Virus record (IMG/VR): IMGVR_UViG_3300025133_000115
Span: 1-59,184 of that record
Strand: one strand, 5' to 3'
Source: a virus
Lineage: Duplodnaviria > Caudoviricetes
Length of the DNA: 59,184 nucleotides
A model generated the notes under the pieces. That model ran no database searches. It was not told where the DNA came from and saw only the letters and a list, made by a program, of their open reading frames with translations. A program made the translations under genes and the position numbers. Position 1 is the stretch's first letter, and every line of letters starts with the position of its first letter. Positions 25,357 through 40,857 of this stretch are shown here, one piece after another.

Positions 25357-28300
25357 ATGGCTGATCCTAATGGACCCACCGAAGAAGACAGGGCGTATGA
25401 AGATGCCCTTATACAAGCGATAAAAGACGCCAATGCCGCTGACAATGAAGAGCCTCTTAAGCGTAACGCTGGAGTATCCTCTGAGGTTGACGATTTTACC
25501 TTGGAGTTGACGGGGGCTATTGAGGAAGACCGGCGGGAGCAAAAGAAGGCCGAGCAAAAGGAAGAGCGTGAATTCAACAGCGTATTCCAACGCGAGATCG
25601 ATAATGGCACCCTGGAGTTGGAAGAACTACAGTCTGAAAATCTGTTCAATGCAGAAATCTTGCTTGAAGATCAAGGGATGAGCAGGGAGGAAATCCGAGA
25701 GAAAATCTTGGATATGATTAATGCCCAGAGCGTTCTTGGCCCTGATTTAGTCGCTGAAACAACGATTGGGGCATACGAGGCAGAGGGCAAGCCTCACGAC
25801 AATATAAATCACCAAGTCATTCGAGTCCTCAATCGAGGTTTAGTTAAAATTCCAATGCCTGGAACCCTGCCTCCTGATTCCCAGGAGATGCGTACAGCAG
25901 CCGACAGGGCAACTGCTATCCGAGCAGATATCCAATCTCAGATTGAGGACATGGGCCGGTGGAATGCCTTCCTAAACAACATGGGAAAATCAGAGGCTTT
26001 TAACGAAACAGATCTTATTGAAGTACGAAAAGAGCTTTGGTCGAATGTTCGTCGGGGGAGTGGGCAGCTTATTCGAGACGAGGCGTATCAGTCAGTGGAA
26101 TCATTAGACAGGCAAGTCAAAAGAATCCCGCTTGTGGGTGACGTGTATGGCGGCCTGACAGGTATCGTTACATCACTTATCGGCACAAAAGGTGCGCCTA
26201 GTAATCTTGATAAGTGGGAGTGGGACACATTCGCTCAGACACAACAATCTTGGATGCCTCCAGGGATTCATTTGTTCCTGTACAAAGGCAGCCCTCATGC
26301 AAACGAAGAGGAGCTTGGGGAAGAGTGGTGGATCAGAGAGTATGACGAGAATTCGTATAATTTTAAAAGACACGGAACAAAAAAACAGCCCAAAACAGGA
26401 GACCTTACTGACGGTGAAGTAGCCCAGATGAGAAGGCTGTCGCGCATGTTGGATGATATGTTGGCCGACGATTGGAATCCGAACGTTGCTCAATGGCATG
26501 GTTGGAAAAACGAAGGCCACAGAGCGTTGGCCTATGTTGAAGCTTACGAGGGGGCAAGAACAGCTTGGGCCGATGGTAAATACCAGTGGCTTCAGGATTA
26601 CATCGAGGGTGAAAGGGTAGAGGACAACGTACAACTAGCCAAGCGTTTGGTTCATAAGGTTGAATACGACACGAGGGATTATTCGCCTAATTATATGTGG
26701 GTAGGCTCGAAGAGTTTTCCAGGCATTCGGATGCCGAAGGATAGCCAGACACATGGTGTGTATAAAGCCCTGGTTAGAATGTTGCGCCACAAAGATCCGC
26801 TTCAATTCTCAGATGATGACCTTGTAATCGCATTGCAGAATCTTCATGCTGACATGCTTCCAGATCATTCTCTTCGTGATGTATACGTCCGTTACATGGG
26901 TGGTGACGCTACATGGGGCGCAACAATGTCCCATTATGCTGATAGCGACATCATGCGGGGGCTTTCTAAGTTTGAGCCGTTTAGTAGTACCGCTGAAGCT
27001 GTTTTAGACAGAGGCCATTTCTCTGATAATCCTCGTGGAGTTCGAGCATCGGATTGGGGTTATGGTGCTTTTAAAGGACTTACTTCTCCCATTGTTCAAA
27101 CTCAAAGGCTTGGCTCTACAATTGCCACCCCTTTCTATGAAGAGTTGGACAACATACTTTTTGATATTCTTCCTGATCAGGGAATCGAAGACGCAAGGGG
27201 TACTGATTCGATCAAAGCTCTGTGGTCTGTAGTAAGTACAAATGTTGGCCCCTCTGGTTTTAGAACTGAAGAGGAGAAAGAAGAGTATTTGAGAAAAGCT
27301 TGGCTCAACTTCAGCAGGGATGACCTCCATTTTAGATGGATGCACATGTATGAGTTCACCACTGACGATTTGATAGCTGGGCTGTCTGTTCCTCAGGCTC
27401 AGTGGACACCGGAATGGAAATCTGTCGTTAGTAGCCTGACCGCCGTAGCACGCCAAAATGACCCAAAATTAGTAGTGGTTGAACCAAAGATAGGAAGGAT
27501 TCTTATCGATCACATTAAGTACGCACAAAGGCAGGGAGATCGCGATGCTGTTTTCGATCAAGACAACGATTGGCTAAAAGATTTGTTCTATGTTTTGAAT
27601 AGAACACCTATTGGTCAATTGCCAGAACCTCTTTTTGAGAAAGTTGACAGGACAAACGAAAAGATCACCACGGCTGTTAATGCTTGGCGAGGGGCACACA
27701 AAAGGATTTTCGGTGGCGGTAGGTCCGCTGCACTAGGTCTAACAGAAAGTGCTTTTCAGGATAAAAGATTTGATGTAGATGAAAATGGGGTTCCATCCTT
27801 TTGGCATCAGGAATCTACGCTTGCCTATAATTTAAGAATATTTGGCGGCATTGCTGAGCTTGGGACTACAACCATTGCTAGATACGGTCTGGACCCTCTT
27901 GGTGAGGTCTTGACGTTAGGCAGCTACGATAGAGAGGAAAGGGGTGATTCTTTTCTTGCAGAGGTTCTGTACAATTTGCACCCAGAATCAGAAAGTTGGG
28001 GCATGCAGGGGGCAATGTCTGGGTGGGCTGTAGGCATGGGCGCAGACCCCAATGGTAAGATTGTTCGTTCAATGCGTGGCGCTGGGTTTGCTGCTGACAT
28101 TTTTGTTCCGTGGGAAACGGGCATATTCAAAGGTGCCAAGACGATTGTCGCGTCTCCGTTTAGATATGCAGGCGCTTCAAAGCGGTTACCGGGGGCTAGT
28201 AGAGGTGCAAGAGCCCTCTATGCCTTGTCGCCCAAATGGGCATGGGATTCCATTGCTCCAACGGTGACCCCTGCTCAGAGGCAGGCAAGAGCCTTAGAAA

Positions 28301-31300
28301 TATTCGATGCCAATGCAAATGCGTTGCTTGCCAAGAAAATGGACGCCAGGAGAAAGAAAGTTGGCGGCCCTTCTGAAGTGATAACTCTCGACGATTTGTC
28401 TGACGCAGAAGTCAACAGTCTTTGGAAGCGCACCAGGAAAAGCCTTGAGGCGGAATTTAGGCAGTCAACAGCCTATAAAACTAGGATGTCGCATGGCGAT
28501 GTTCGTAGAGCACGGGGTCTTGAGGGTGATGAAGGTAGCTTCCGGTTTGGAAGACCCAAGGATGTAAAAGCGCCATTCCCTGGAGTAGGAGCAACCTGGG
28601 GCGAAATGGCACTCAGGATTTATGAAGACAACATTGCTAAAGGCAGGAACCCTTTTCAAGGTCTTCCTCGGGCTCACTGGACAGAGATTTATGATGCGCT
28701 TGAGGTTGTCGGGCTGTCTGTTCGTGAGGTTCGTAGCATCATCCATGCAACAGCAGAAGCGCGTGGACGTAAGTTTGTTTCAAGGCTCGGATTAGAAGCC
28801 AGTCGATATTATGAAGGGGTTGAGGAACTTCAACAATCCGAAGTCTTTAGACGAATGAAGAAACGTCTGGAAGAAATGGCGGAAAAAGGTGAACTCCAAG
28901 GTGTTGACGATGGCCTTGATGCGATCAAAGTACAGATGAAGCTTGTTGAAAGAGTGTACTTTGCAGCGCTACGAAAAACTGGAAGCGCAGAAGACGCGCT
29001 TGAAATTGTTGCTGGCTTTGAGGCAAAGCTATTCGGAATCGAACGGGGAGGGGGACTCAAGGGCTATGCAGTAGAAGACTTGTTATTAAAGTCTTTCGGA
29101 CTAAAGCTTGATGATGCTGGCAAAGCAATCTTTAGTGATATTGACATCGCTGATGACTTGATAGATGAGCTAAAGCTATCAGATAAAGACGGTTGGAATA
29201 GCGCACGGCTCAGGTCTGTCTCTTCTGTTGATTTAGAAGGAAAGCTTCTTGAGGAGCTAACAGCAGGTGAGCTTGTGGTGCTTGCTGCCAAGCTTGCCGA
29301 CCCGGAGCTTGCACACCAAGCAGTAGTTACTGTGCTTCTTCGGCGGCTAATGAAGGCGATTGCAGACAATGACGACGCAGCCGTCAGCGAGATTCGTGCA
29401 GCGCTAAGCAAGTACACCAACATGGTAAAGGGCGAGACTGGTTTTAGTAAGAGGATCAAGTCCCTGCGTGACAGCATCGCTGAGGCACAGGCTGAAATAA
29501 AACGGACTGTAAAGTCAACATCTGCTGAAGTAACTCCCGGCTTTGGTAAGCAAGCACTTCTAAGCAAGCTTGATGATCTAAAGGAAAGGGGTCTTCCAGA
29601 CGATGTGTACGTCTTCTTGTATTCGATGGTTCACGCGATGCCTTCTCGTGTTCTTAGAGACATCGGGCTTGAAGACTGGATTGACACCGCTGTTGGAAAG
29701 TTTGCAGATGATCTGGAAGATCCGGTTCTGAACGAACTTCGTCGTCTTGATGAAGAGTTAGGCAGAGCCCCTCTCGACAGTGCAGGGACTACCTCTGTTG
29801 TAAAACTTGAGGGCACCGCTAAGAAGTTTCCCGGTGATCGTGTGTATTCGTTTATCGAGCTTTTTGATATGCAAGGAGATGTTGCGGGAACAATGGACCC
29901 AATGCGTATTCTTGAGAACGAAAAGCTTGGAAAGCTTACGTTTGAAGAGCTTTTAACAAAATTAGATGGCGGCGATATATCGGATCTGGAGGGAGCAACA
30001 TTAACCCAGATTATTCGTAAGATCGCGCACAGCAGACTTGAGGATGGCCTAAACCTAAGAGAGAAAAGGTTTATTGATTCTTTAGTCGCAAACAGAGATG
30101 CTTTGCTTGGCAGCAGAAACATTGACCCAAGCATCAAGGATTTCATTAGCGACTTTATAGATCATGCAGATGAAGGAAAGATCTCCTTAGCGCAAGTAGA
30201 AGACTTTCTTACCAATCGAGTAGACACTCATGTTGAGGGGCTTCAGTCTCTTGACCATATGACTTATACGTTTGCCCATGAAATGGGACATGCGGTCATG
30301 ATGTCGTTTCTTTCGGATAGTGAGGTAGCGAATCTTAGACGTGTATATTTCGATGAACTTAAGCGTACTGGGTTGGTGGATGAAACCCCCTATACAAGAT
30401 GGAATCTTGAAAACCAAGGGAAAAACATTGGCTTCTTAGAGTGGTACGCTGAGAAGTTTGCTGAATACGTTGTCTACAACAAGATGCCAGAGGTGATCAG
30501 CAGAAGCGATTTTGCTCCTTCTGTAAGGAAAATTTTCAACCGGCTTATTGTTCGTCTGAAAAAACTTTTTAGGGCAATGAGCCGAAAAAACCCTCGTTCT
30601 TTTGAAGAATTTCATCCGATGTTTCTTAGTCATATGAAGCGTCTTTTTGATGGTAAAGCATCTGAAATTTCAGATGCTTCTGAGATTAACAGAAGAAGAC
30701 TTCAAGGGTGGAAAGCGTTTGACGTTGGTGTAGACCATTTAGATAATATTGGAAGACCGATTGACGATGTCATTGACGAACTTCGTCGTCTTGATGAAGA
30801 GTTAGTTGGAAAGTTTGCAGATGATCTGGAAGATCCGGTTCTGATTGAAGATGTTCCCTTTGGGGAAAGAGAAGCAGCGGCCAGCTTTGTTGGGATTCGT
30901 GAACGTCAGGTCGCCGCGCTTCCAGAGATTAAAAAAACGAAATATCGGCCCGATGCTAGCGCTGAAATAATCGAGCGTCACGCCAGGTTGGCAGCAAGAG
31001 AGGACTACGTTCTTGGCGAGAAGTCTACGCACGCTACCTTTTCTCCATTCAAAGAGACTTGGGATCTAAATCGTGGCTACGAGTCTATTGACGGTGGTAG
31101 TTTTAAATTTAGTAAAACCTCAGAGGGTAGGGGCTCTGATTGGCAGTCAATATACACCGATGAGTTTATGAACTTGGTTCGCGGGTACGAAGCGAAGCGT
31201 GCTGAGTTTGATGAGCCTGATTTCAATGTTGGTGATCGAGTCAACTATGTTGAGACGGGACTTCGTGATGGAGAATCAGTAGAAACCATTGTTGATGGGT

Positions 31301-34300
31301 ATGTTGCCAATGTGTTCTTGCCTGGTTCAGCAAAGTTTGATGAAGGCTACAGGTATAGAGTTCGCACAGTAGTAGAGGCAGGAAGATATCCGCAGACGTT
31401 TATGGTGGATGATGCTGACATTGTTAAAATGTCAGACGCGCCTACCCAGCCTGTACGATCAAGGGGACGGGAGATGTATGGCCCTCCGAGAGGCAGGCAA
31501 ATGTCTGGTCCTCCGTCCCCTGGGAACCAGATTCCTCGTAAGGATTGGAACGAAAACTGGCAAAACAAACCCGCTAAAGAATCTGCACGGTGGTTGAGGG
31601 ATCAACTTACTGATGAGTTTGACAGAACTGTTCTCGATAGAGTCATTGAAACTCTGGATGAATCAGGAACAGCTAAATGGAGCACATCCGTAAAGACGTA
31701 CTTGTCAGACACGCCTGGTAGGGCCGGTGAGTATTGGGATGACAAGGGCCACGTTGTTCTCGACCCAGCGCGATCATCGTATCAACCGGGTGGCATGGTC
31801 CGGGCAGCAATTCATGAATTGGTTCATGCTGCTACCGTGGGCAAAATGGAAATGAATCCAAGATCTATTGAGGTAGATCGATTGAATCGTCTTTTCGAGG
31901 AGGCGAAATCACAAACGACCAATGCGAATCTTTATGGATACAACAACACGAGAGAGTTTTTAGCAGAGGCCCTTTCAAATTCTAAGTTCCAAGATGATCT
32001 TCGAGCAATCAAGATTAGTGATGAACTCGCTGAAGAACTAGGTATTACCGATCCCAACCTTTGGGAGGGTTTCGTTGCTGTTGCTCGTCAGTTGCTCGGT
32101 CTTTCTGTTGGGGATCAATCGGCACTTTCGGCTGCTTTGAAAGTAGCAGAAGACATTGGTGAGTTGAGCATTGAGCCAACACGGTCGTTGCCGTTTTTCG
32201 AGCGGGCCGAGGCACTGCGTGGTCCTGCACTGCTTCCAGATCGCACAGTAGCACCACCGACTTCATCTGCGGAGTTCAAGTCCTGGTTCAAAGATTCCAA
32301 GGCGGTAGATGGCGAAGAAAAACCTCTTCAGGTTTGGCACGGAAGCCCGTTTAGCTTTGATGAGTTCCAGCCTGGAAATGTAGAGGCATATTTTGGGTCT
32401 GCTGTTTACTTTACGGATTCAGCGTATGACCTTGCGGAACACTACGCATTTTCTTCTTTAGATCCACTGTTTATGGAGAAAGGAACTGAGTGGTTCAAGG
32501 CGTTTAATGAATACAAATCAAACATATACGTTGAGTTTGATGGCTACACAGACGTTGACATCGTCAATGTGGCAAAAGACTTTGTTAAAACTGATGCCTT
32601 TTCCAAGATATCTGACGCCGCTCAAAAAAGATTGAAAAATGCTATTGAAGACTCGAACGTAAAAATCATAAGAGACGAGTTCAAAGACGTTGTGGTTGAT
32701 GCCATGGCAAGAATTGACTTTGAAACAGACGGTGCAATGCAGGCTTACCCTGTGTACTTGAGCATCCAAAACCCGCTGATTTTAGATGAATACGGCAAGA
32801 TGAAAGACGTTGCCCATTCATTCAGGTGGGCAGACGACGGCACTGGCGAAGCGCTTATGGATGCTATCGATACGGTTGCTGCTCGTCTTACAAAAGAAGG
32901 GGTGGTTGTAGATCAGGTTGAGCGACTAAAAGAGTTTGTTTTAGATTCAAGGGAAACCAAGGGTGGCGTAACTCAAATCCCAGCGCATAAAGCATGGGAC
33001 ACGATGATAGACAAAAGGTTTGATAGCTCAGGCCCAGAAGGGCTTCATTTTCAGAATGAATTCGCTAGACAGGTAGTAGAACAGCTTGGCTACGATGGCA
33101 TCATTGCCAACGCTCATCGCTTCTTTTCAGACAAGTATGACCCACAGACTAGAGTGCTTACACCAGGACAAAGGCTTCCGCTTGCAGCAACTCACTACAT
33201 GGTGTTTGAGCCAACACAAGCAAAGAGCGTAACGAACAAAGGAACCTGGGCTCCAACTGATCGCCGCATGATGTACGGCCCTCCAAGGCCGACTGCTGTT
33301 GGTAATGAGCCTCTTTTTGCCCCCGACTATACAGATAGAGGCAAAATACCCTTCAGGCCCGCAATGCAACCAAAGCCGGATGATTTGATTGTTGTAGAGC
33401 ACACCACGCGGGCCAAGTATTTAGACATTTTCATGGATGAAGGAATCGATGCAACGATTTCACCCCCGACACGCGGGATTGGCAGGCTTACCTTCCAAGC
33501 AGATGGCACTGCTCGCACTAGCTCAATTAAGGAGCCGGGTCTTTATGTTGCGCCAGCAGACAGCCTAAGCTCCAAAGAGCGAGTCATAATTGTCGTTCCG
33601 GCAAAAAGTATTGGGCTAACTGTTGAGTCGGAGGGTCTAGGGTACAAGAGCGGAATTGAGGGGCTTTATGGTGCCAGTGACGCCGTTATTCGTAGCAAAA
33701 TATCCCCTGAAAATGTCGCTGGCAAAATGATTTATGACCCGACTCAACAAGAATGGAAGTGGGTTGCAAACCCTAAAAGTCCGTATGGAGACAGATTTGA
33801 GGTAGACGGGTCGAACTTAAGAACAAGGCAACCTGAACCGCCTACTCGTTCTGATTTCAAGACAGTTTCTGATGCAATGTGGGATCTCCTCGACGCCACC
33901 ATGTCTCCAGACCCCGCCCAACGGAAACCACTGTCAGCAGCCGACAGACGGTCGCTGAACGCTCGCAGAGTGGTAGGGCCTAGGCGCTTTGCTGAGCAGC
34001 TTTTAGACCAGATGAACGTGTCGGACGAGGTGGTTGGAGGCAAACCCCATGAAGCTATTGATGAGCACATTGCGTCAGGGCTTTCGGGGCAAATCTCGAC
34101 ATCCCAGCTTACTGGTAGTCAGGTCAATAGGGTCCGCGAATCGCTTGGAAGCGCTTCTGAGCTTGCTGATGTGTCGGGCACAATCAAGGTGAAGGTCAAG
34201 GTTGCTGGTGTCGATAAGCCTGTTGATCTGACCATTACTGTTGTTCCGGTAACCAAAGAACTCAAACCGGCTTTGATTCCTGGTGGTTTAGACGGTGAGT

Positions 34301-37300
34301 TTTCCTTCCATGATCTGACGTATTTATCAATGCGCCCGGTAGAGTTGAACTACGCAAGGCTTCCAGAGCCCAAGCTTCCCGATGTAGAGATCACGGTTGA
34401 TGGCCAAACCAGAAAGATTTCCTGGTCCGATATTACAAATCCACAAGAGGTTATCAATAGGTATATTGATGAATACGATTCAATCGTAAGCAAGCTTTAC
34501 GATAAGAAGCAAAGAAGCGCTGACGTTGATGTGTTTAGGCCCGATCCTGCCGAGTACTTTGACGGTAGCGGCAATGTCATTCCATCTAAGCTTGTAGAGT
34601 ATCAACAGCGACTTGATTTGTATCTTACCGGGCTGGCTTCTCGCTCAATGCATAGCCTCCTCGACCCGACATCAAGAGTGTTTGAAAATCAGGTGTTTAC
34701 GTCTGTAACTCAGCCACGAAATCTAAAAGATTTGTTTGAAATGGGCGACAGGTATATGACTGCTCTTTCGAATAAGGGCGCTAATCTTACAAGAAACGAA
34801 ATCATCTACATCATGAGGTTCTACGCACAAGCCAATGAGAGGTTTAAGAATTCTTATCGTGGTTCCTTGATTAGCCTCGATGTGGCCCCTGAGTTGCTGG
34901 ACTCTATTACGGCTCGTGACTGGCAAAAGCCAAACGCTCCGATCATGGATATTGATACAATCGAAATGTCTCAAGTCGGGGCAGCCAGGATCTTAGATAC
35001 TAAGCAATGGTTGCGGCTGCGCGAATCAGAACTGGTGGATATGCTGGAGAATGTAGACTCTCCAGAACTTCGTGGAAAAATCCTGGCTGATCTTGAGAAC
35101 ATTAGAGTGGAAAGGCTTCGTGTAGATTCGATAGCGTCTACTCCTTCTCCAACAGCTTTGGCTCAAGATTTGGCTGAGTCATCTGATTCGATTGGCAGAA
35201 CAGCAGACAACACTGTCATGAGAACACTGACCCTTATGACAAAGGACTTTGATGATCTTCTCAATGGAAGAAAGAAGCACTCTTGGTTCGAGCGCCATCC
35301 CGACGAATCATGGCTGGAGTTTTCAGATAGGTTTGTTGCCCTTACAAAGGGTCTCGCACCAGACGCCCCGGTAATCACTGGTTCAAAGATTGATGAGTTC
35401 TACGGCGCAGGAAAGCCTGGTCATAGCGATGCTCTTTTGTGGTTCTCCGAGTGGAAGCACGTCAATGCAAAGGCTGATTACAACCGAATTATCTTTGATG
35501 TGATGGCTTCAAAAGGATTTAAAGACCTTAGATCAAGATTTGAAGCGGGCGAGATAGACCGGGCAGGTTTTGATCTTGCTTTCAAGAAAGCGGTCGATGA
35601 AAAGCGGGTATCTGTTTTTCAGCAAAGAGCCGATGTTGAGTTCGATTCTTGGATGTCAGACCCTGATACTCGTCCTTATTTGGTTGAGCGTGCAAATGCT
35701 TTTGCGACCAAACCAGAACTGGTTGAGTTGTTTCCGACCGAAATACGAAATGCACTGGGGAACACTAGGCGTATTGATTCAAGCCTTGTGTCTCGGGAAA
35801 TCAACAGAGTAAAGTCGAGTTACTCCAACAACCCCGGAAGATTGGCGGCCCTAGACAAAACATTAGAAGCCCACAAAACAATCGAGGGTTGGGTCAAGAG
35901 GTTTGGCCGAGAAGATTCAATGCTAAATCTCCTTATCAAAAGCATTGAGAGCGGACGCCTCTCCAATATTAATCGACTCGATGCGAACTATCGCAAGCTT
36001 GTTGGAGATGTTTCGTCTGAGCTTCATGGCCCTTTAATGGCGCAAACAGAGCGAATGGCAGACATGCTTGAGGGCGGGTTTGCCTCCGATGCATTTAGCC
36101 ATCCTGGTGCTTCTTTCTTACCAAACATGAGAACGTTTGCGTTTGATGCTGCTTTAGATTCTGTCATGGACACCGCCCCATGGTTGAAGCAATCACAAGC
36201 CCGCGATGCCTTAAGAGGAAAGGGAAGAACCCCGTCCGCATCTATCGGGCCTGCATCGAGGGGTGTGTTTTCGCGCACCTTGACGGATTCCGACCAAGTT
36301 TCAGGCCCTGGTAGTGCTGGTAGGGGATCTAAGGCGAGGGGTCGTGTGATGTATGGCCCCCCCGCAGATTCATTCAAACCTCTGCGAGAGTTCTCGCCCG
36401 ATGATTTCGATGCTTCCACGCTTCATACCAAGATGTTTTTCGAAACTGGCGACGTAAGACACCTGTTTGCTGAAAGCGGCAGAATGCTTGCCAGTCTTAT
36501 GATGGACGAGTTTGATGACGTAGCCGAGTTTATGTACAAGAACTTTGATAGCGAGGTTCTTGGAGATGGGACACGTCGGTTGACAACGAAGGGTTGGGAT
36601 GAGCTTTCGTCGTCATTTGCCTACTATTTCAGCACAAGACATGCAGAGGATGGCGCTACACACAACCTCTTTCGGAAGATCAAGAGAGCCCTTCATCATC
36701 TTTGGAAGATGATCAGAGCCGACAGAACTCACGAGCTAAGCCCAGAGTCCATCGCGTTCTTTGATGAGCAACTTGCTGTTGGTATTGATATTTCTGAAAG
36801 AGCCAAGGTGGCTGTATTAGACGACGCAGATTTAAAGAATTTCTATACAGTTAGGCTTAAAGAGTTGCGCGGCGGGGAAGAAGTAGCGAGTGCTGGTAAG
36901 CGTAGAGAGGCCGCCCGTATCGAGTCAAGAAGAAGACAGCTTCAGCGCATTCTTGAGGTAACTGATGAAACAACAGAAGTAGACGCCGTAGAGATCGTCG
37001 GTCTTGCCGTCCGTCATGTTTTCGCAGAAGTAGCAAGAAAGAAATGGGGAGCAGAGAGAACTGTCAGATTGACAGGGCAAACAATGGTTCCTGTTATTCG
37101 GGCTGAGCGGATTCGAGAAAGAGTTGCCACTAAAATGTTGGATGTGTTTGGCGACCCACAGCATCTAGCAGACGCGAAGGTAACGATAAAGCTTCAAGAG
37201 CGAATGACCGATGACGTTGGAAGTTGGCTGCGTGATCCAGAAACCGGAAAGGTTAGGACCAGGACTGTCATCGATGACGCCACAGGAAAGCCCGCAGAGG

Positions 37301-40300
37301 TTTCTGTATTCAACTTGAGTCGTCCGCAGCAAGTAAGACTCAAGGTTCTTGTGCAAGAGCTTGGCGCTAATCCGCTGGCTAGAGATACTATTCCAACATG
37401 GATGTTTGAAGCGGATGCTGATTTCTCTAAGCTGTCAGTTATTGAGTACAACCGGATTCATGAAGCGCTAACCGACATGGAAGCGGGTGTTGGGGGGACA
37501 CGAAGCAGACTTGCGGAAAGCGTTTCGCCAAATCTTGCGAAGCGAACCTGGGCCTCAATCATTGACGCTGGTGGGAATGTTCCTTTCTTGGGAGGAATGA
37601 TCGCAGGGTTCCGTGAAAGGTTTAAGGTCTTTGAGCCCTTTGAGGTCGCAGGGATATTAGAGGGAGATAGCGCTAAAAGAGCCTGGAGCAGGACTGGCTA
37701 CGTTACGCCCGAAGTTGTAGAAGCTAAAAAGATGATGGATCAAGAGGTCAACGACATTCCAAACTGGTTGTTGCGGGTACAGCTTAGGCTCCAAAAGGAA
37801 GGTTCTAAGGGCAGTATTCTTGAGGTTATCCAGTCTCTTACGAGAATGCTTACCCCTCCTCTTGATGTTCGACAAGCCGAGAATGCGTGGAGGCTTAGGA
37901 AAGTATTTTCTAACTTGGGTAAACAACCTCTGACAATTGAATTGCTTGATGCAAAGCTCGATGCGGTCACTGCTTTGTTTGCCTCAAGCGGTAGGATGAC
38001 AGACGCGGAGCGTGGTGCGATTATTGCGCTGCGTGATTTAATAGACAACTCTAAACAAGCCGACACCATTGAACTTTCAAAGGATCAGGTCAAGGCATTT
38101 AGAGACACTATCGAAATTATTGAACGAGGTCTTCACGACAGGTACAACCTTTTAGATCAACGAGTCAACGATATTGTTGAGTGCATTTCTGGTAGTCAGG
38201 CTCAAGCAAGAGCCGCCATGGCAGGAATGGACGATCTAACTAAATCTCGACTGTACTCCAGCTTCTATGGTAACGACTGGCCGGATCTGTTTGAATGGGC
38301 CTCCCAACACGGCCTTACAATTGGAACACGCCCAGATGTGATGCCCGCATATGATGCGCGACACGCTGCGATCCAACTGATCGTTCGAATGAGGGCCAGG
38401 GAGATCCAGGCAAAGTTTATTGATAAGTTGGTAGAGGTTGGGGTTACCGCGAGAGTAGACGGCCTTGCTGATAAATATGCACAAGGCAAAAACACGACTC
38501 GGTTTATGGAGCGCGTAAAGCACTACATTAATCTTGAGCTTCGTCCAGGTGGCGCTGCGATTGTTCGAGATGCGGAAGGGCGAGTCATTCAAGCTCCGTC
38601 TGGATTCAGATCAGGAAGGCGTGGCGATATTGGTGAGATTGTTGAGCCTGCTGAGCCTGGCGCTGTTGTTGATGGAAAGCCAATCTATCCATCTCAAGAC
38701 TGGGATGAAGCAACAAGGCGGATACCGTATCTAGATTTAAAAGCACCGGAAGGCGCACAGCAGACCTATACCAGACATGACATGGCCGCCTATACAGCAG
38801 CCCATGAAATCCTGAATGCATGGGGCTTTAAGTATGGTGCAGCCACTGAAGATTGGGTCGATTGGGTTGCTCCTGATGGTTCAAGGACTCTAGTCCCTAA
38901 AATGGTTCTTGATGAACTAAATGCTGCTATTGATAGGGTCAGTGGCCAGGGAGCTTTTGGTAAGGGCGCAAAAGGCAAAGCGGCAGAAGCAATCGAAAGA
39001 GGAAGACCCCGCTCTGGAGATCTTGGGAAAGAGTTTCTCTTTGGAGAAGACGCTCTAGATCCAGCGTGGAAAATGACACCTGGAGTTGCCGCAAAGGTCC
39101 TAATCGCAGACACTCTTGACTACACGCTTAGGCTCTACGGGTTTACCTACTCATTGCTCCGTCAGGGCGTAACGGTTGGTATTGGTCAGCCAAACATTCA
39201 TTACTACCAAGGCATCACCATTGGTGCGTTGCTTCAGATCTATCAGAAATCAGGTCTTGGTCTGAAGATTGGAAGAGATGGCGTTCGTGTTGAAGGCGGC
39301 GTCTTAGGGGCGCTTTCTCACCCCAAGTTGTCTGGCGTCTTGGCTGCTAGACTTTGGGGTGAAGCGCCAAACCCCAAGAGCGTTGCAGGGGCTAGAGCCT
39401 TGGTTTGCAAAGACGGTCGAATCTTTACTGTTGAGATGCTTCTTGAGGGAATGTTGCTTTACAAGCTGAATACCTCTTTTGTGAAAAGCGGAAACGCGGC
39501 ACACATGCTCCGTGACTTGGAGAAAAATGAAAATGCGTGGCACAAGATTGTCTCTGAATCTCCCGGTAGAGCCCAGCGCTTATTGGTAGAGGCCGCTACT
39601 TCTGTTGATAACTACTTCAGATCAGGCGTTTTTGTTGATGAGCTTTACAACGGTCGTTCAATGGCTCATGCGGCACAGATCGCCACAGATGCCATGTTCG
39701 ATTATTCGAAGCTGACCGATTGGGAGAAAGCTGTTTTCAGAAGAACATTCATGTTCTACTCATACACCAGGAACAACCTGAATCTTTTCTATGACACCCT
39801 GTTGGAGAACCCAAGTCGCATCATGGGCCAGGTTCGGCTTATGCGTGGGTTGAGAGAACAGAACACCGAGGGAAGCAATGTCATTATAGAGACTGATTAC
39901 ACTTCTCAAAGACTTGGTGTTTTTTATAGAAATGCATATGCAAACACAAGTATTTATCAGGGTGTAAGATTTTTAGCAGCACCGCTGCCCATTATGGACG
40001 CGATCAACTTACATAGAGAGATTGCCGCATTTATTAGTGGTGGGTTTGATCGTACAGCCTCAGTCGAAAAGCGAGAACAGGGGCTTCGTTTCCTTGCCCG
40101 CATGAACCCGCTTTTTCAGCAACCATTAGTGTTCCAATTTGACGAGGAGATTTTTAGAACGCGCCCGCTTACTGGAGACGTGATCCCAACCAGCATTGTT
40201 GAGTTGGATGTGTTGATGACTGGCGGCGTGTTTGTCCTGAACTTTCTTGGTGCCACTCCGGTTCCAGTTTCGACAGCCATGAAAAAAGAATACCCAGGAC

Positions 40301-40857
40301 AAGAGTATGTTTGGGTTGCCAAAAACTCGCGAAATTATTGGATTTGGAAAAACACGCTTCAAATGCCGTTCCCTGTCATCGATATGCCAGAAGGCAAAAG
40401 TCTTTTGAGCCAGACCGTTCCAGGTATTTTGTATCGTGCCATTCCGCAGATACCCAAAGCAATCAAAGAAGGAAGGCTCGGGCTCATGATGGGTGGTCGT
40501 AGTGTCGATAGCTGGGTTCAGTTTGATAGAGCCGATGTTGGCTACGTTGAGAGCGTTCTAACCATTGGTCACAAGATGCGCGAGTATCGCAAACATCATG
40601 GGTACTTGGAAGACGACCCGTTTGATCCTGCTACTACGGTAGACAAGCCCTTGGTAGACAAGATAGAGGATGGGACATATTGGACACGAGGGGCTCCCCC
40701 GCGCCCCGAATTGGGTAAATGGGGCGAGCGGGCTGGCATATTCTCCAGGCCCAAGCTTGTTCCTACAGAAGAGCAACGAATAGTAGAACTAAAAGAGCAA
40801 TTATTGAGAGAAGAAGAAGACAGGGCGAAGGAAATTAAGCCTCCTCGCGAACGATAG
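25357..40857 (+). CDS. Giant polyvalent virion/ejection protein (zincin peptidases, ART-like domains, conserved ejection-type C-terminus)
   Basis: 5166 aa; HEMGH (30277) and HELVH (31813); FKSWF...WHGS...YFT...VYL...GYDG...YMVF.PTQ.KS (ART-PolyVal-like, 32260-33270); second ART-like domain 33385-33725; AMFDYS..T..E...FYSY..NN near the C-terminus. Confidence 0.88.
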   Translation: MADPNGPTEEDRAYEDALIQAIKDANAADNEEPLKRNAGVSSEVDDFTLELTGAIEEDRREQKKAEQKEEREFNSVFQREIDNGTLELEELQSENLFNAEILLEDQGMSREEIREKILDMINAQSVLGPDLVAETTIGAYEAEGKPHDNINHQVIRVLNRGLVKIPMPGTLPPDSQEMRTAADRATAIRADIQSQIEDMGRWNAFLNNMGKSEAFNETDLIEVRKELWSNVRRGSGQLIRDEAYQSVESLDRQVKRIPLVGDVYGGLTGIVTSLIGTKGAPSNLDKWEWDTFAQTQQSWMPPGIHLFLYKGSPHANEEELGEEWWIREYDENSYNFKRHGTKKQPKTGDLTDGEVAQMRRLSRMLDDMLADDWNPNVAQWHGWKNEGHRALAYVEAYEGARTAWADGKYQWLQDYIEGERVEDNVQLAKRLVHKVEYDTRDYSPNYMWVGSKSFPGIRMPKDSQTHGVYKALVRMLRHKDPLQFSDDDLVIALQNLHADMLPDHSLRDVYVRYMGGDATWGATMSHYADSDIMRGLSKFEPFSSTAEAVLDRGHFSDNPRGVRASDWGYGAFKGLTSPIVQTQRLGSTIATPFYEELDNILFDILPDQGIEDARGTDSIKALWSVVSTNVGPSGFRTEEEKEEYLRKAWLNFSRDDLHFRWMHMYEFTTDDLIAGLSVPQAQWTPEWKSVVSSLTAVARQNDPKLVVVEPKIGRILIDHIKYAQRQGDRDAVFDQDNDWLKDLFYVLNRTPIGQLPEPLFEKVDRTNEKITTAVNAWRGAHKRIFGGGRSAALGLTESAFQDKRFDVDENGVPSFWHQESTLAYNLRIFGGIAELGTTTIARYGLDPLGEVLTLGSYDREERGDSFLAEVLYNLHPESESWGMQGAMSGWAVGMGADPNGKIVRSMRGAGFAADIFVPWETGIFKGAKTIVASPFRYAGASKRLPGASRGARALYALSPKWAWDSIAPTVTPAQRQARALEIFDANANALLAKKMDARRKKVGGPSEVITLDDLSDAEVNSLWKRTRKSLEAEFRQSTAYKTRMSHGDVRRARGLEGDEGSFRFGRPKDVKAPFPGVGATWGEMALRIYEDNIAKGRNPFQGLPRAHWTEIYDALEVVGLSVREVRSIIHATAEARGRKFVSRLGLEASRYYEGVEELQQSEVFRRMKKRLEEMAEKGELQGVDDGLDAIKVQMKLVERVYFAALRKTGSAEDALEIVAGFEAKLFGIERGGGLKGYAVEDLLLKSFGLKLDDAGKAIFSDIDIADDLIDELKLSDKDGWNSARLRSVSSVDLEGKLLEELTAGELVVLAAKLADPELAHQAVVTVLLRRLMKAIADNDDAAVSEIRAALSKYTNMVKGETGFSKRIKSLRDSIAEAQAEIKRTVKSTSAEVTPGFGKQALLSKLDDLKERGLPDDVYVFLYSMVHAMPSRVLRDIGLEDWIDTAVGKFADDLEDPVLNELRRLDEELGRAPLDSAGTTSVVKLEGTAKKFPGDRVYSFIELFDMQGDVAGTMDPMRILENEKLGKLTFEELLTKLDGGDISDLEGATLTQIIRKIAHSRLEDGLNLREKRFIDSLVANRDALLGSRNIDPSIKDFISDFIDHADEGKISLAQVEDFLTNRVDTHVEGLQSLDHMTYTFAHEMGHAVMMSFLSDSEVANLRRVYFDELKRTGLVDETPYTRWNLENQGKNIGFLEWYAEKFAEYVVYNKMPEVISRSDFAPSVRKIFNRLIVRLKKLFRAMSRKNPRSFEEFHPMFLSHMKRLFDGKASEISDASEINRRRLQGWKAFDVGVDHLDNIGRPIDDVIDELRRLDEELVGKFADDLEDPVLIEDVPFGEREAAASFVGIRERQVAALPEIKKTKYRPDASAEIIERHARLAAREDYVLGEKSTHATFSPFKETWDLNRGYESIDGGSFKFSKTSEGRGSDWQSIYTDEFMNLVRGYEAKRAEFDEPDFNVGDRVNYVETGLRDGESVETIVDGYVANVFLPGSAKFDEGYRYRVRTVVEAGRYPQTFMVDDADIVKMSDAPTQPVRSRGREMYGPPRGRQMSGPPSPGNQIPRKDWNENWQNKPAKESARWLRDQLTDEFDRTVLDRVIETLDESGTAKWSTSVKTYLSDTPGRAGEYWDDKGHVVLDPARSSYQPGGMVRAAIHELVHAATVGKMEMNPRSIEVDRLNRLFEEAKSQTTNANLYGYNNTREFLAEALSNSKFQDDLRAIKISDELAEELGITDPNLWEGFVAVARQLLGLSVGDQSALSAALKVAEDIGELSIEPTRSLPFFERAEALRGPALLPDRTVAPPTSSAEFKSWFKDSKAVDGEEKPLQVWHGSPFSFDEFQPGNVEAYFGSAVYFTDSAYDLAEHYAFSSLDPLFMEKGTEWFKAFNEYKSNIYVEFDGYTDVDIVNVAKDFVKTDAFSKISDAAQKRLKNAIEDSNVKIIRDEFKDVVVDAMARIDFETDGAMQAYPVYLSIQNPLILDEYGKMKDVAHSFRWADDGTGEALMDAIDTVAARLTKEGVVVDQVERLKEFVLDSRETKGGVTQIPAHKAWDTMIDKRFDSSGPEGLHFQNEFARQVVEQLGYDGIIANAHRFFSDKYDPQTRVLTPGQRLPLAATHYMVFEPTQAKSVTNKGTWAPTDRRMMYGPPRPTAVGNEPLFAPDYTDRGKIPFRPAMQPKPDDLIVVEHTTRAKYLDIFMDEGIDATISPPTRGIGRLTFQADGTARTSSIKEPGLYVAPADSLSSKERVIIVVPAKSIGLTVESEGLGYKSGIEGLYGASDAVIRSKISPENVAGKMIYDPTQQEWKWVANPKSPYGDRFEVDGSNLRTRQPEPPTRSDFKTVSDAMWDLLDATMSPDPAQRKPLSAADRRSLNARRVVGPRRFAEQLLDQMNVSDEVVGGKPHEAIDEHIASGLSGQISTSQLTGSQVNRVRESLGSASELADVSGTIKVKVKVAGVDKPVDLTITVVPVTKELKPALIPGGLDGEFSFHDLTYLSMRPVELNYARLPEPKLPDVEITVDGQTRKISWSDITNPQEVINRYIDEYDSIVSKLYDKKQRSADVDVFRPDPAEYFDGSGNVIPSKLVEYQQRLDLYLTGLASRSMHSLLDPTSRVFENQVFTSVTQPRNLKDLFEMGDRYMTALSNKGANLTRNEIIYIMRFYAQANERFKNSYRGSLISLDVAPELLDSITARDWQKPNAPIMDIDTIEMSQVGAARILDTKQWLRLRESELVDMLENVDSPELRGKILADLENIRVERLRVDSIASTPSPTALAQDLAESSDSIGRTADNTVMRTLTLMTKDFDDLLNGRKKHSWFERHPDESWLEFSDRFVALTKGLAPDAPVITGSKIDEFYGAGKPGHSDALLWFSEWKHVNAKADYNRIIFDVMASKGFKDLRSRFEAGEIDRAGFDLAFKKAVDEKRVSVFQQRADVEFDSWMSDPDTRPYLVERANAFATKPELVELFPTEIRNALGNTRRIDSSLVSREINRVKSSYSNNPGRLAALDKTLEAHKTIEGWVKRFGREDSMLNLLIKSIESGRLSNINRLDANYRKLVGDVSSELHGPLMAQTERMADMLEGGFASDAFSHPGASFLPNMRTFAFDAALDSVMDTAPWLKQSQARDALRGKGRTPSASIGPASRGVFSRTLTDSDQVSGPGSAGRGSKARGRVMYGPPADSFKPLREFSPDDFDASTLHTKMFFETGDVRHLFAESGRMLASLMMDEFDDVAEFMYKNFDSEVLGDGTRRLTTKGWDELSSSFAYYFSTRHAEDGATHNLFRKIKRALHHLWKMIRADRTHELSPESIAFFDEQLAVGIDISERAKVAVLDDADLKNFYTVRLKELRGGEEVASAGKRREAARIESRRRQLQRILEVTDETTEVDAVEIVGLAVRHVFAEVARKKWGAERTVRLTGQTMVPVIRAERIRERVATKMLDVFGDPQHLADAKVTIKLQERMTDDVGSWLRDPETGKVRTRTVIDDATGKPAEVSVFNLSRPQQVRLKVLVQELGANPLARDTIPTWMFEADADFSKLSVIEYNRIHEALTDMEAGVGGTRSRLAESVSPNLAKRTWASIIDAGGNVPFLGGMIAGFRERFKVFEPFEVAGILEGDSAKRAWSRTGYVTPEVVEAKKMMDQEVNDIPNWLLRVQLRLQKEGSKGSILEVIQSLTRMLTPPLDVRQAENAWRLRKVFSNLGKQPLTIELLDAKLDAVTALFASSGRMTDAERGAIIALRDLIDNSKQADTIELSKDQVKAFRDTIEIIERGLHDRYNLLDQRVNDIVECISGSQAQARAAMAGMDDLTKSRLYSSFYGNDWPDLFEWASQHGLTIGTRPDVMPAYDARHAAIQLIVRMRAREIQAKFIDKLVEVGVTARVDGLADKYAQGKNTTRFMERVKHYINLELRPGGAAIVRDAEGRVIQAPSGFRSGRRGDIGEIVEPAEPGAVVDGKPIYPSQDWDEATRRIPYLDLKAPEGAQQTYTRHDMAAYTAAHEILNAWGFKYGAATEDWVDWVAPDGSRTLVPKMVLDELNAAIDRVSGQGAFGKGAKGKAAEAIERGRPRSGDLGKEFLFGEDALDPAWKMTPGVAAKVLIADTLDYTLRLYGFTYSLLRQGVTVGIGQPNIHYYQGITIGALLQIYQKSGLGLKIGRDGVRVEGGVLGALSHPKLSGVLAARLWGEAPNPKSVAGARALVCKDGRIFTVEMLLEGMLLYKLNTSFVKSGNAAHMLRDLEKNENAWHKIVSESPGRAQRLLVEAATSVDNYFRSGVFVDELYNGRSMAHAAQIATDAMFDYSKLTDWEKAVFRRTFMFYSYTRNNLNLFYDTLLENPSRIMGQVRLMRGLREQNTEGSNVIIETDYTSQRLGVFYRNAYANTSIYQGVRFLAAPLPIMDAINLHREIAAFISGGFDRTASVEKREQGLRFLARMNPLFQQPLVFQFDEEIFRTRPLTGDVIPTSIVELDVLMTGGVFVLNFLGATPVPVSTAMKKEYPGQEYVWVAKNSRNYWIWKNTLQMPFPVIDMPEGKSLLSQTVPGILYRAIPQIPKAIKEGRLGLMMGGRSVDSWVQFDRADVGYVESVLTIGHKMREYRKHHGYLEDDPFDPATTVDKPLVDKIEDGTYWTRGAPPRPELGKWGERAGIFSRPKLVPTEEQRIVELKEQLLREEEDRAKEIKPPRER
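29692..30843 (+). repeat. Order-swapped direct repeat (A-B ... B-A) inside the giant gene
   Basis: A=39 bp at 29692-29730 and 30805-30843; B=27 bp at 29734-29760 and 30778-30804; 100% identical and in frame. Confidence 0.95.

Follow-up and report, generated by a model that had tools for sequence, protein, structure and literature searches.

What does a short peptide do that recurs at the module ends of a giant phage protein? The question is raised by R-x-M-[YS]-G-P-P, four copies of which are encoded in a single open reading frame (ORF) of a virus (Table 1). In the original prediction these copies were taken for cleavage sites of the protein's own zincins, or else for joints of an exchangeable payload. 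The DNA analysed, here called the window, comprises 59,184 nucleotides and is an IMG/VR virus record (IMGVR_UViG_3300025133_000115; Caudoviricetes) that is 80% complete. Upstream of the ORF lie genes for a terminase (PF17289), a major head protein (phrog_9953), an SU10-type adaptor and an internal virion protein (phrog_511). Judging from the sequence, the source is best explained as an uncultured marine podovirus and the ORF product as a giant polyvalent ejection protein; the position of the gene, and the homology of one of its domains with ejection proteins of solved structure, suggest that the product is probably packaged in the virion and ejected. Similar to the polyvalent proteins of Iyer et al. 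(2017), it is a large protein encoded in a phage late or structural locus, and at least two unrelated activities are united in one chain (ART-PolyVal, two HExxH domains, an ejection-protein-like domain and module X).

Table 1. Features of the giant protein, with positions in the window.
Feature	Position (nt)	Strand	Remarks
Giant polyvalent protein ORF	25357..40857	+	single ORF, 5,166 aa
Zincin 1	30127..30669	+	HEMGH at aa 1641 (nt 30277-30291), E-W-x-A motif downstream
Motif 1, RGREMYGPP	31462..31488	+	kept as RGREMYGPP in P0002/L001, TGRELYGPP in L002
Motif 2, RGRQMSGPP	31489..31515	+	header at the N-terminal end of the zincin-2 cassette; the counterpart in P0003 is RRTGPP
Zincin-2 cassette	31489..32247	+	~246 aa, with HELVH at aa 2153; missing in P0002, in L002 and in the near-identical strains
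ART-1, ART-PolyVal ADP-ribosyltransferase domain	32311..33243	+	aa 2319-2629; PF18760, 48.3 bits
Motif 3, DRRMMYGPP	33259..33285	+	lineage form of the general ART-PolyVal C-terminal tail
Module X cassette	33286..33838	+	~184 aa; absent from P0002, L002 and near-identical strains
Motif 4, RGRVMYGPP	36337..36363	+	island in a Gly/Ser/Arg-rich stretch; conserved C-terminal scaffold starts 16 residues on
C-terminal scaffold	36409..40854	+	~1,480 aa; best-conserved part of the family; 11 sequences aligned, many invariant columns

The four copies (aa 2040, 2049, 2639 and 3665; M codons at nt 31474, 31501, 33271 and 36349) match the original prediction in sequence and position, and the motif was not found elsewhere in the window outside this ORF. 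From the composition, 0.0018 copies of M[YS]GPP would be expected against the four seen, and in 2000 shuffles of the sequence one copy appeared in nine and more than one in none. Each of the four GPP tripeptides in the 5,166 residues falls within a motif copy (0.78 predicted from composition), while PP dipeptides across the protein are at expectation (12 seen, 10.7 expected). As predicted, motif 1 precedes zincin 2 and motif 3 stands at the end of ART-1. Motif 4 had been placed before a 'degenerate zincin', and this did not hold: the region that follows is the start of the conserved C-terminal scaffold, and profile-profile comparison with the zincin-1 profile gave a probability of only 0.3%. 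The claim that every copy lies in a linker found modest support, since AlphaFold2 puts the ART-1 tail outside the confident fold (pLDDT <50) and gives values of ~27-34 around motifs 1 and 2, in a model that is poor overall. Motifs 1, 2 and 4 are not preceded by an ART domain, and stand free in low-confidence, linker-like stretches.

The motif is not a product of chance, and its peptide sequence is under purifying selection. Orthologues at 65-76% identity (P0002/L001 and L002) retain three of the copies with synonymous codon changes, and these sites hold the same seven residues while their flanks diverge. Codon differences between the copies, already pointed out in the original prediction, were confirmed (TAT/TAC; CCT/CCG/CCA/CCC), and the kept sites together use CGA/CGG/AGG/AGA/CGT for R, TAT/TAC for Y, GGC/GGT/GGG for G and CCT/CCG/CCA/CCC for P. 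In L002, Leu has taken the place of Met at each of the three sites, with a different codon every time (CTC, CTT and CTA); this parallel change argues for one shared reader and against gene conversion. The strict motif is restricted to one small clade: YGPP was counted once in 150 other polyvalent proteins, and an IMG/VR search returned only the lineage of this protein and two chance hits. In the more distant P0003, RWRVFY is found at the place that matches motif 4.

The copy behind ART-1 is not a private invention of the lineage, a possibility that was ruled out when it proved to be a version of the widespread ART-PolyVal tail. ART-1, which scores above the curated PF18760 cut-off of 31.2 bits, found 3001 library proteins at E<=0.001 when used as a query. 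Counted along the aligned segment, H44 and Y79 are (nearly) invariant; the active-site residues of ART-PolyVal are given as H-Y-D in the text consulted of PMC5512222. A general tail, D-P-x-[DN]-P-[DR]-I-[RL]-[FY]-[SQ], ends 405 ART-PolyVal domains in 145 of the 150 other polyvalent proteins, where it comes after N-x-G-x-[FWY]; motif 3 aligns with it. Among the 405 tails, I is found at +7 in 323, F/Y at +9 in 191 and S/Q at +10 in 225, and there is no PP in the general tail of the other polyvalent proteins. The tail lies outside the Pfam model, and the ART-1 match stops at model position 137 of 140, ~10 residues before it. Whereas the tail elsewhere reads I-[RL]-[FY]-[SQ], the form in this lineage is M-[ML]-Y-G-P-P, and its core is used here at two or three more sites that have no ART, unlike the ART-PolyVal tail. 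Zincin-2 modules end in EPRTLHS (L009), ESRLLFS (L011) and EPRMLFS (L015). Stand-alone ART-PolyVal proteins retain the tail and continue for only 15-36 residues, so the tail may serve the ART domain itself.

The sequence directly C-terminal to YGPP is variable. The protein (P0001) and its nearest orthologue, P0002, differ by five indel rows of at least 6 aa, and both differences of more than 100 aa start 0-3 residues after YGPP: a 246-aa indel begins with the final Pro of motif 1 (aa 2044), and a 20+188-aa indel at aa 2647, three residues past motif 3. Two payload cassettes, the ejection-protein-like zincin-2 domain and the 184-aa module X, occur in some strains and not in others; the reading frame is kept, and the breakpoints lie at GPP codons. 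Four metagenome runs from four studies were compared; two (X3 and X4) contain the cassette-bearing form, and in the other two (X5 and X11, independent marine metagenomes) both cassettes are missing in frame, with flanks that are 97-99% identical. The junctions (31484 to 32248; 33285 to 33839 or 33926) fall within motif 1 and exactly at the end of motif 3, and the net changes are, by arithmetic, 246, 184 and 208 codons. Both cassettes are bordered by short direct repeats (GGYCCT around zincin 2, CCN-ACT around module X). Any linker can be expected to take up insertions, so the position of the motif is a weaker argument than its raw odds would imply; in a related family, one cassette sits in a Pro/Glu-rich linker without the motif.

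Transfer of a cassette is indicated for zincin 2, which is 61% identical to that of P0003 as against 24-27% for the scaffold, and the block of high identity starts directly after the GPP of motif 2. Together with the indels and the cassette-less strains, this supports the earlier proposal of joints for an exchangeable payload, at which homologs would gain or lose domains precisely at the motif. Module X, which has no Pfam hit, is found also in the unrelated polyvalent proteins P0004, P0060 and P0101.

Zincin 1 is the conserved candidate protease: no family member that extends over this region lacks it, and HExxH together with E156/W157/A159 is invariant in all seven aligned giant proteins. In zincin 2, HExxH and a downstream Glu are invariant in five of five. 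Neither has a Pfam peptidase match above threshold, zincin 1 giving sub-threshold metallopeptidase hits only, and the AlphaFold2 model of the zincin region is poor and too weak for a fold match. HExxH was counted 106 times in the 150 polyvalent proteins, where 9.2 are expected. Among the structural genes scanned, no further protease came to light. Zincin 2 was ruled out as a required reader of the motif, since orthologues hold three motifs without it.

The zincin-2 cassette matches three PDB entries, 9sfn_G (E 1e-17), 8vb2_A (3.5e-4) and 23sg_S (1.8e-3), all of which keep HExxH. It is homologous to ~130-190 aa of podovirus ejectosome proteins, namely PhiM1 gp48 (8vb2; PMC11440229), the internal virion protein 9sfn_G and gp10 in 23sg_S, and the gene order is also as in ejectosome proteins, the 5,166-aa gene sitting after internal-virion-protein genes. 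The ejectosome proteins, however, have 1,240-1,340 aa and no ART, and the homology does not run along a whole protein of the T7 gp16 or PhiM1 gp48 type but is limited to this cassette, which some strains lack. T7 gp16 is named as the counterpart of the tetrameric ejection protein PhiM1 gp48 in the available text of PMC11440229, in which neither peptidase nor HExxH occurs. Neither the C-terminal scaffold nor the remaining regions searched outside the cassette gave a PDB match. A likeness by description is encountered in phi24B gp47, a 2,811-aa podovirus polyvalent protein that has a metallopeptidase domain, was found in virions, is packaged in the head and is proposed to be an ejection protein (bioRxiv 10.64898/2026.04.10.717836). 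Its domains differ (LPD1, LPD5, LPD38 and MuF-C), and the part of that account available reports no processing sites.

Autoprocessing of polyvalent proteins by zincins has already been proposed (Iyer, Burroughs, Anand, de Souza and Aravind 2017; PMC5512222). The present protein resembles those described there in being giant, multi-domain and encoded in a phage structural module, with a polyvalent-type ART, HExxH domains, mosaic content and a proposed release by zincins. It differs in its defined punctuation motif and strain-level cassette polymorphism, and in that neither zincin matches the Pfam models. No description of the motif or of the polymorphism was found in the main text of that paper, where 'linker', 'boundar', 'conserved motif' and 'C-terminal extension' have no occurrences; its supplementary alignments may show the ART tail.

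The best explanation, which we hold tentatively and at somewhat less than an even chance, is that the motif is a short linear end-of-module signal read by one factor, likely a protease. One common factor would read all copies through the R-x-[ML]-Y-G-P-P residues on the N-terminal side of the junction, and whichever cassette is placed behind the tag would then be handled alike. The reader would most likely be a protease, with the invariant zincin 1 of the same protein as the best candidate, acting in the capsid or after ejection. Cuts would yield the N-terminal part, an optional zincin-2 domain, ART-1, the middle part and the C-terminal scaffold. In MARTX toxins and RNA-virus polyproteins, effector modules are carried on one chain and freed by an embedded protease at short linker sites, and the set of modules varies between strains by recombination. 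The protein studied here likewise has a repeated conserved site motif at module boundaries; this would be an analogy of working only, as the proteins, proteases and delivery routes are unrelated. The Pro-Pro endopeptidases PPEP-1 to -4 are described, in the accounts available, as HExxH zincins that cut between two prolines at sites centred on P-P. The invariant G-P-P would suit such a P|P cut, a lead drawn from the likeness of the sites.

The considerations counted for this signal were the chance odds, conservation, the parallel Met-to-Leu change, the indels, the strains, cassette transfer, the general tail, low pLDDT, the candidate protease and the autoprocessing hypothesis already published. 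Those counted against it were the sub-threshold zincins, the uncut polyvalent proteins, the tails of stand-alone ART proteins, the cassette in a motif-free linker and the restriction of the motif to one clade.

Conservation, the Met-to-Leu change and a low-confidence (disordered) context would also fit if the copies were docking peptides that are never cut, binding one partner (portal, capsid interior, an ejectosome protein or a host factor) and organising the giant chain inside the head or once it has been ejected. The presence of several copies in one protein would be in keeping with an oligomeric partner, stand-alone ART proteins keep the tail, and the text consulted of PMC5512222 describes polyvalent proteins (N4 virion RNA polymerase, ArdC and TraC1) that remain uncut on packaging or transfer despite having a peptidase domain of this kind. 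Docking leaves the start of variable cassettes exactly behind the motif without explanation, and no other protein of the window contains the motif; we regard it as rather unlikely. Slightly less probable still is that the motif marks a boundary passively, as the upstream module's conserved C-terminal cap copied by duplication, with cassettes gathering where a linker tolerates insertions and no dedicated reader. Motif 3 is clearly the ART-PolyVal tail, the direct repeats fit illegitimate recombination anywhere in Pro-rich linkers, and the cassette of the related family lies in a different linker. Against this stand the copies that have no preceding ART, motif 4 being an island in Gly/Ser/Arg-rich sequence; the seven residues held at three sites despite drifting flanks, with Met changed to Leu in parallel through different codons; and the tail, which is modelled outside the confident fold.

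The confinement of all four GPP to the motif while PP is at expectation, and the location of every copy at a module end, are also what a translational pause would predict. G-P-P slows the ribosome through EF-P-dependent stalling, and each domain of the 5,166-aa chain could thus fold before the next. The conserved R-x-[ML]-Y and the parallel Met-to-Leu change would remain unexplained, and the general tail of other polyvalent proteins has no PP, which makes a pause very unlikely. Purine-rich Arg/Gly codons might finally act as ribosome-binding sites for internal ATG starts that give nested shorter products, with AGGGGACGGGAG before the ATG of motif 1 and AGAGGCAGG upstream of that of motif 2. 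This is contradicted by L002, which has CTC, CTT and CTA for ATG and no ATG at all in two of the three sites; moreover, the Arg codons vary freely and motif 3 lacks a purine-rich leader. Internal starts are therefore extremely improbable.

An end-of-module signal also admits a wider version, which we consider unlikely: the module-end tail (R-x-[ML]-Y-G-P-P here; D-P-x-N-P-D-I-R-F-S and variants elsewhere) would be a universal, portable 'cut here, insert behind' tag for an embedded zincin that reads only upstream residues, perhaps with a P-P cut, the effectors being released in the host. If so, polyvalent proteins would be plug-and-play arrays of effectors, with turnover of the payload among co-occurring strains.

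Polyvalent proteins rank with the largest and commonest proteins of phages and plasmids, and whether they are processed, and at which sites, has stood as a prediction since 2017. This locus supplies a concrete candidate, a tag of seven residues that is conserved at three to four sites, together with evidence from nature that near-identical marine phage strains exchange entire effector modules exactly behind the tag. Even if the protein stays uncut, the tag is a clear instance of a linear motif setting joints at which recombination is tolerated. Should it be a cleavage signal, it would account for the evolution of new payloads without loss of delivery, provide a rule to parse thousands of unannotated giant phage proteins into units, and offer a handle for engineering phage-delivered cargo.

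The giant polyvalent protein P0001 carries a conserved, repeated peptide tag at module ends, and variable content and mobile cassettes lie directly behind this tag. The IMG/VR record of the window is 59,184 bases long, with a completeness estimate of 80%. Upstream of the giant ORF are genes for the terminase large subunit, the major head protein, an SU10-type adaptor and an internal virion protein, and the position of the giant gene is that of podovirus ejection or internal-core proteins. A close relative is absent from the Phage GenBank collection, in which the central region had seven weak matches and the C-terminal region had none. The C-terminal scaffold is conserved in 11 giant proteins (contigs L001, L002, L007-L016), with numerous invariant columns of Gly, Pro, Trp and Arg, and has no matches in Pfam, PHROGs or PDB. 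No prohead protease was recognised among the structural genes scanned in the window.

Coordinates of the giant ORF, its modules and motif copies, its indels against the orthologue P0002, and other features of the window
Feature	Window (nt)	Giant protein (aa)	Remark
Giant ORF	25357-40857, + strand	5,166 residues
Zincin 1	30127-30669	HExxH at 1641
Direct repeats around zincin 1	29692-29761 and 30776-30849		~1.1 kb apart
Motif 1, RGREMYGPP	31462-31488	M[YS]GPP at 2040
Motif 2, RGRQMSGPP	31489-31515	M[YS]GPP at 2049
Zincin 2 (cassette)	31489-32247	HExxH at 2153
Domain common to zincin 2 and ejection proteins	31800-32230
ART-1 (ART-PolyVal)	32311-33243	2319-2629	Pfam 48.3 bits, cut-off 31.2; sole Pfam-recognised domain of the ORF
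Motif 3, DRRMMYGPP	33259-33285	M[YS]GPP at 2639
Module X (cassette)	33286-33838		~184 aa
Motif 4, RGRVMYGPP	36337-36363	M[YS]GPP at 3665
C-terminal scaffold	36409-40854		~1,480 aa
Indel, 15 aa		1446
Indel, 246 aa		2044	last Pro of motif 1; zincin-2 module and motif 2
Indel, 20 and 188 aa (208-aa piece)		2647-2857	starts three residues after motif 3; module X
Indel, 10 aa		5016
ORF of 207 aa	9426-10049		N-terminal Zn-ribbon_8 domain (E 3e-13); between putative portal and head genes

All four GPP tripeptides of the protein lie within copies of M[YS]GPP. Composition alone predicts 0.0018 copies of this five-residue core, and among 2000 shuffles one copy appeared in nine and two copies in none. 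The four copies and nucleotide positions named in the original prediction are therefore confirmed and are not due to chance. A scan of the whole window found the motif in the giant ORF only. Three copies (RGREMYGPP, DRRMMYGPP, RGRVMYGPP) are kept by P0002, a protein of 4,704 aa that is 65% identical to the window protein in the central region and is the product of one gene, present on contigs L001 and L004-L006. A second orthologue, on contig L002 (70% identical in the C-terminal part), also keeps three (TGRELYGPP, DARMLYGPP, RGRELYGPP); further orthologue searches returned only the P0002 type. The residues are kept while codons differ freely between orthologues and the flanks diverge, as expected from the selection on the peptide that had been proposed. 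In L002, each of the three sites has Leu instead of Met, with a different codon every time (CTC, CTT and CTA). Three independent changes of this kind are expected if all sites share one reader, while gene conversion is disfavoured because it would have copied the codon.

A back-translated IMG/VR scan for RGRxMYGPP returned the known relative and two matches in short Arg/Cys-rich frames, which were taken as chance. Protein P0089 begins VYGPPAPP, and was rejected as kin since it is not a scaffold relative. A literature search for the strings MYGPP, YGPP and LYGPP gave no phage-protein paper among the matches listed. AAA+ ATPases also have such strings in and around Walker A; these are unrelated to the phage motif.

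In the alignment of P0001 and P0002 there are five indel rows of at least 6 aa, and both large indels begin 0-3 residues after a YGPP. The inserted modules have relatives elsewhere. Zincin 2 is 61% identical to that of the relative P0003 (3,491 aa), against only 24-27% for zincin 1 and the scaffold, and the block of high identity begins directly after the GPP of motif 2. Module X is also found in the otherwise unrelated proteins P0004 (identity at least 44%), P0060 (at the N-terminus) and P0101. This contrast in identity and this recurrence indicate that both are mobile cassettes. Their GC and GC3 do not differ from the rest of the ORF, and short direct repeats are present at the flanks of both (GGYCCT for zincin 2, CCN-ACT for module X). 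Module X has no Pfam or PDB match, and may be the counterpart of a module termed 'ART-2' in the original prediction.

The same cassettes vary between natural strains. The stretch 30800-34800 is partly present in 20 public marine runs from 13 studies, and contigs were compared over it in four runs from four studies (X3, X4, X5 and X11), none of which is flagged as a possible source of the record. Runs X3 and X4 hold the cassette-bearing form at an identity of at least 99%. Contigs from X5 and X11 have flanks that are 97-99% identical and skip from 31484 to 32248, and at this joint both runs have an identical stretch of 25 other letters; a second skip leads from 33285 to 33839 in X11, and from 33285 or 33294 to 33926 in X5. 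Position 31484 is within the first Pro codon of motif 1, from where the replacing letters continue as P-P-A-P-L-P-E-K-T, and the GPP of motif 3 ends with base 33285. By arithmetic, the skips amount to a net 738 bases (246 codons), 552 bases (184 codons) and 624 bases (208 codons), and each keeps the reading frame; those of 246 and 208 codons equal the P0002 indels in size. A single 2,631-base contig from X11 spans the two joints, and X5 is mixed for both forms (depth ~5.8 in the cassette versus ~65 in the flanks). Domain gain or loss exactly at the motif, which the original prediction had set out as a check, is thus found both against P0002 and in strains, whose breakpoints fall at GPP codons. 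The more distant P0002 and L002 are also without both cassettes, so the simplest history is a recent gain of both in the window lineage, each directly behind a YGPP.

A little past the module X joint, the cassette-less X11 strain has 175 other letters in place of 31 bases at 33887-33919, again in frame, which adds a further variable piece behind motif 3.

Because it is chiefly linkers that tolerate insertions, the odds are properly judged against a null of 'any linker' rather than 'any residue'. In the L011/L015 pair of related giant proteins, a cassette of ~110 aa lies in a Pro/Glu-rich linker without a YGPP-type motif. Given this null and this counter-case, the position of the motif alone is suggestive; the weight for the motif comes from position, sequence conservation and the parallel Met-to-Leu change together. 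The L011 cassette, at aa ~1330-1440 of its giant ORF and missing from L015, sits in a Pro/Glu/Val-rich linker between EEVP-x-P repeats, and has a DGRHR motif reminiscent of ParB-type domains.

ART-1 with its tail, searched against 1.84 billion representative proteins, gave 3001 matches at E<=0.001, and the best 150 of these were surveyed for tails. They are mostly polyvalent proteins several thousand residues long, in which up to 18 stretches matched. ART C-termini of the form Q-x-K-S...N-x-G-x-[FWY] number 408, in 145 of the 150 proteins. The next ten residues, compared over 405 tails, give the consensus D-P-x-[DN]-P-[DR]-I-[RL]-[FY]-[SQ] (I at +7 in 323, F/Y at +9 in 191, S/Q at +10 in 225). 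The window has A-P-T-D-R-R-M-M-Y-G at these positions, and motif 3, the ART-1 copy, is by sequence a known kind of tail. Y-G-P-P itself is lineage-specific, with one occurrence in the best 150 of the 3001 matches. The tail falls past the end of the Pfam model, and its pLDDT is below 50 when ART-1 is modelled with AlphaFold2 from 14 alignment rows (mean pLDDT 62.8); the peptide tag is probably unstructured. Similar tails are found on non-ART modules, the zincin-2 modules of L009, L011 and L015 ending EPRTLHS, ESRLLFS and EPRMLFS, and other proteins have a few free-standing copies of DDPRILFQ ahead of the following module header. Stand-alone ART-PolyVal proteins keep the tail, with only 15-36 residues after it (17-28, then a stop, in P0023, P0032, P0044 and P0131). 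In P0023 and P0032 these residues are hydrophobic and rich in Gly and Ala, and end in acidic sequence (e.g., IGGAAALPTAGALMADDDDDL). The post-tail stretch may be a removable targeting peptide.

Zincin 1 has an HExxH and, further downstream, an E-W-x-A, both unchanged throughout the seven aligned giant proteins, and the domain scores below every threshold of the Pfam peptidase families. An AlphaFold2 model of aa 1540-2300, covering both candidate zincins, was poor (mean pLDDT 48.4), and with it Foldseek found no match in PDB at E<=0.001. The ESM Atlas returned only unnamed clusters for both, with weak leads to LPD23 and LPD1, and a 'shorter' search for zincin 2 gave two distant proteins, both without the motif. 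In the best 150 of the 3001 ART-1 matches, 106 HExxH were seen versus 9.2 expected, and 73 of the 110 proteins of at least 1,500 aa carry one. A degenerate zincin, which had been placed after motif 4, was not borne out: this region has no profile similarity to zincin 1 (hhalign probability 0.3%).

The direct repeats around zincin 1 are in swapped order and near-identical, with units of 45 nt (96% identical) and 30 nt (100% identical) that are translated as VGKFADDLEDPVL and (D)ELRRLDEEL. The 15-aa indel against P0002 corresponds to the first copy of the 45-nt unit, and metagenome contigs end at these repeats (loose ends 30805 and 30844).

Zincin 2 shares a domain with solved podovirus ejection proteins, all keeping HExxH: the 'internal virion protein' 9sfn_G (E 1e-17; HEAVHAAT), the tetrameric ejection protein gp48 of PhiM1, 8vb2_A (E 3.5e-4; HEAAHAKT), and gp10, 23sg_S (E 1.8e-3; HELIHAAT). 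The PhiM1 ejectosome paper (PMC11440229) makes no mention of a peptidase or metallopeptidase motif, and tetrameric ejection proteins may have a conserved zinc site that has escaped notice.

The polyvalent protein class and the idea of its self-processing are already known (Iyer et al., PMC5512222). In the main text of that paper no description was found of a specific punctuation motif, of a relation of the motif to the general ART-PolyVal tail, or of in-frame cassette variation between strains exactly at the tag; the words 'linker' and 'conserved motif' and the stem 'boundar' are absent from it.

One factor would read all copies of the motif through residues upstream of the junction. That the motif might be an internal translation start is rejected as highly improbable, since L002 has Leu codons in place of the Met codon at its three sites. 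A translational pause site is very unlikely. Two rivals stay live, though each is less probable than cleavage: an uncut docking motif, also raised in the original prediction, and, slightly behind it, a passive module cap. Our best guess, a tentative one, is proteolysis by zincin 1. Self-processing by zincins was proposed for polyvalent proteins in general in the main text of Iyer et al. (PMC5512222), which also gives uncut precedents (N4 vRNAP, ArdC and TraC1) that count against cleavage, as does the persistence of the tail in stand-alone ART proteins with so few residues behind it. Modelling zincin 1 (aa 1540-1800, 2 rows) with Zn and a motif-4 peptide (51 aa, 3 rows) gave 0.00 versus a mark of 0.32; run without controls, it counts neither way. 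P0002, L002 and the cassette-less strains keep motifs without zincin 2, which makes zincin 1 the candidate if the protein cuts itself. Such cleavage by zincin 1 would release ART-1 and other pieces of the giant protein, in the capsid or in the host.
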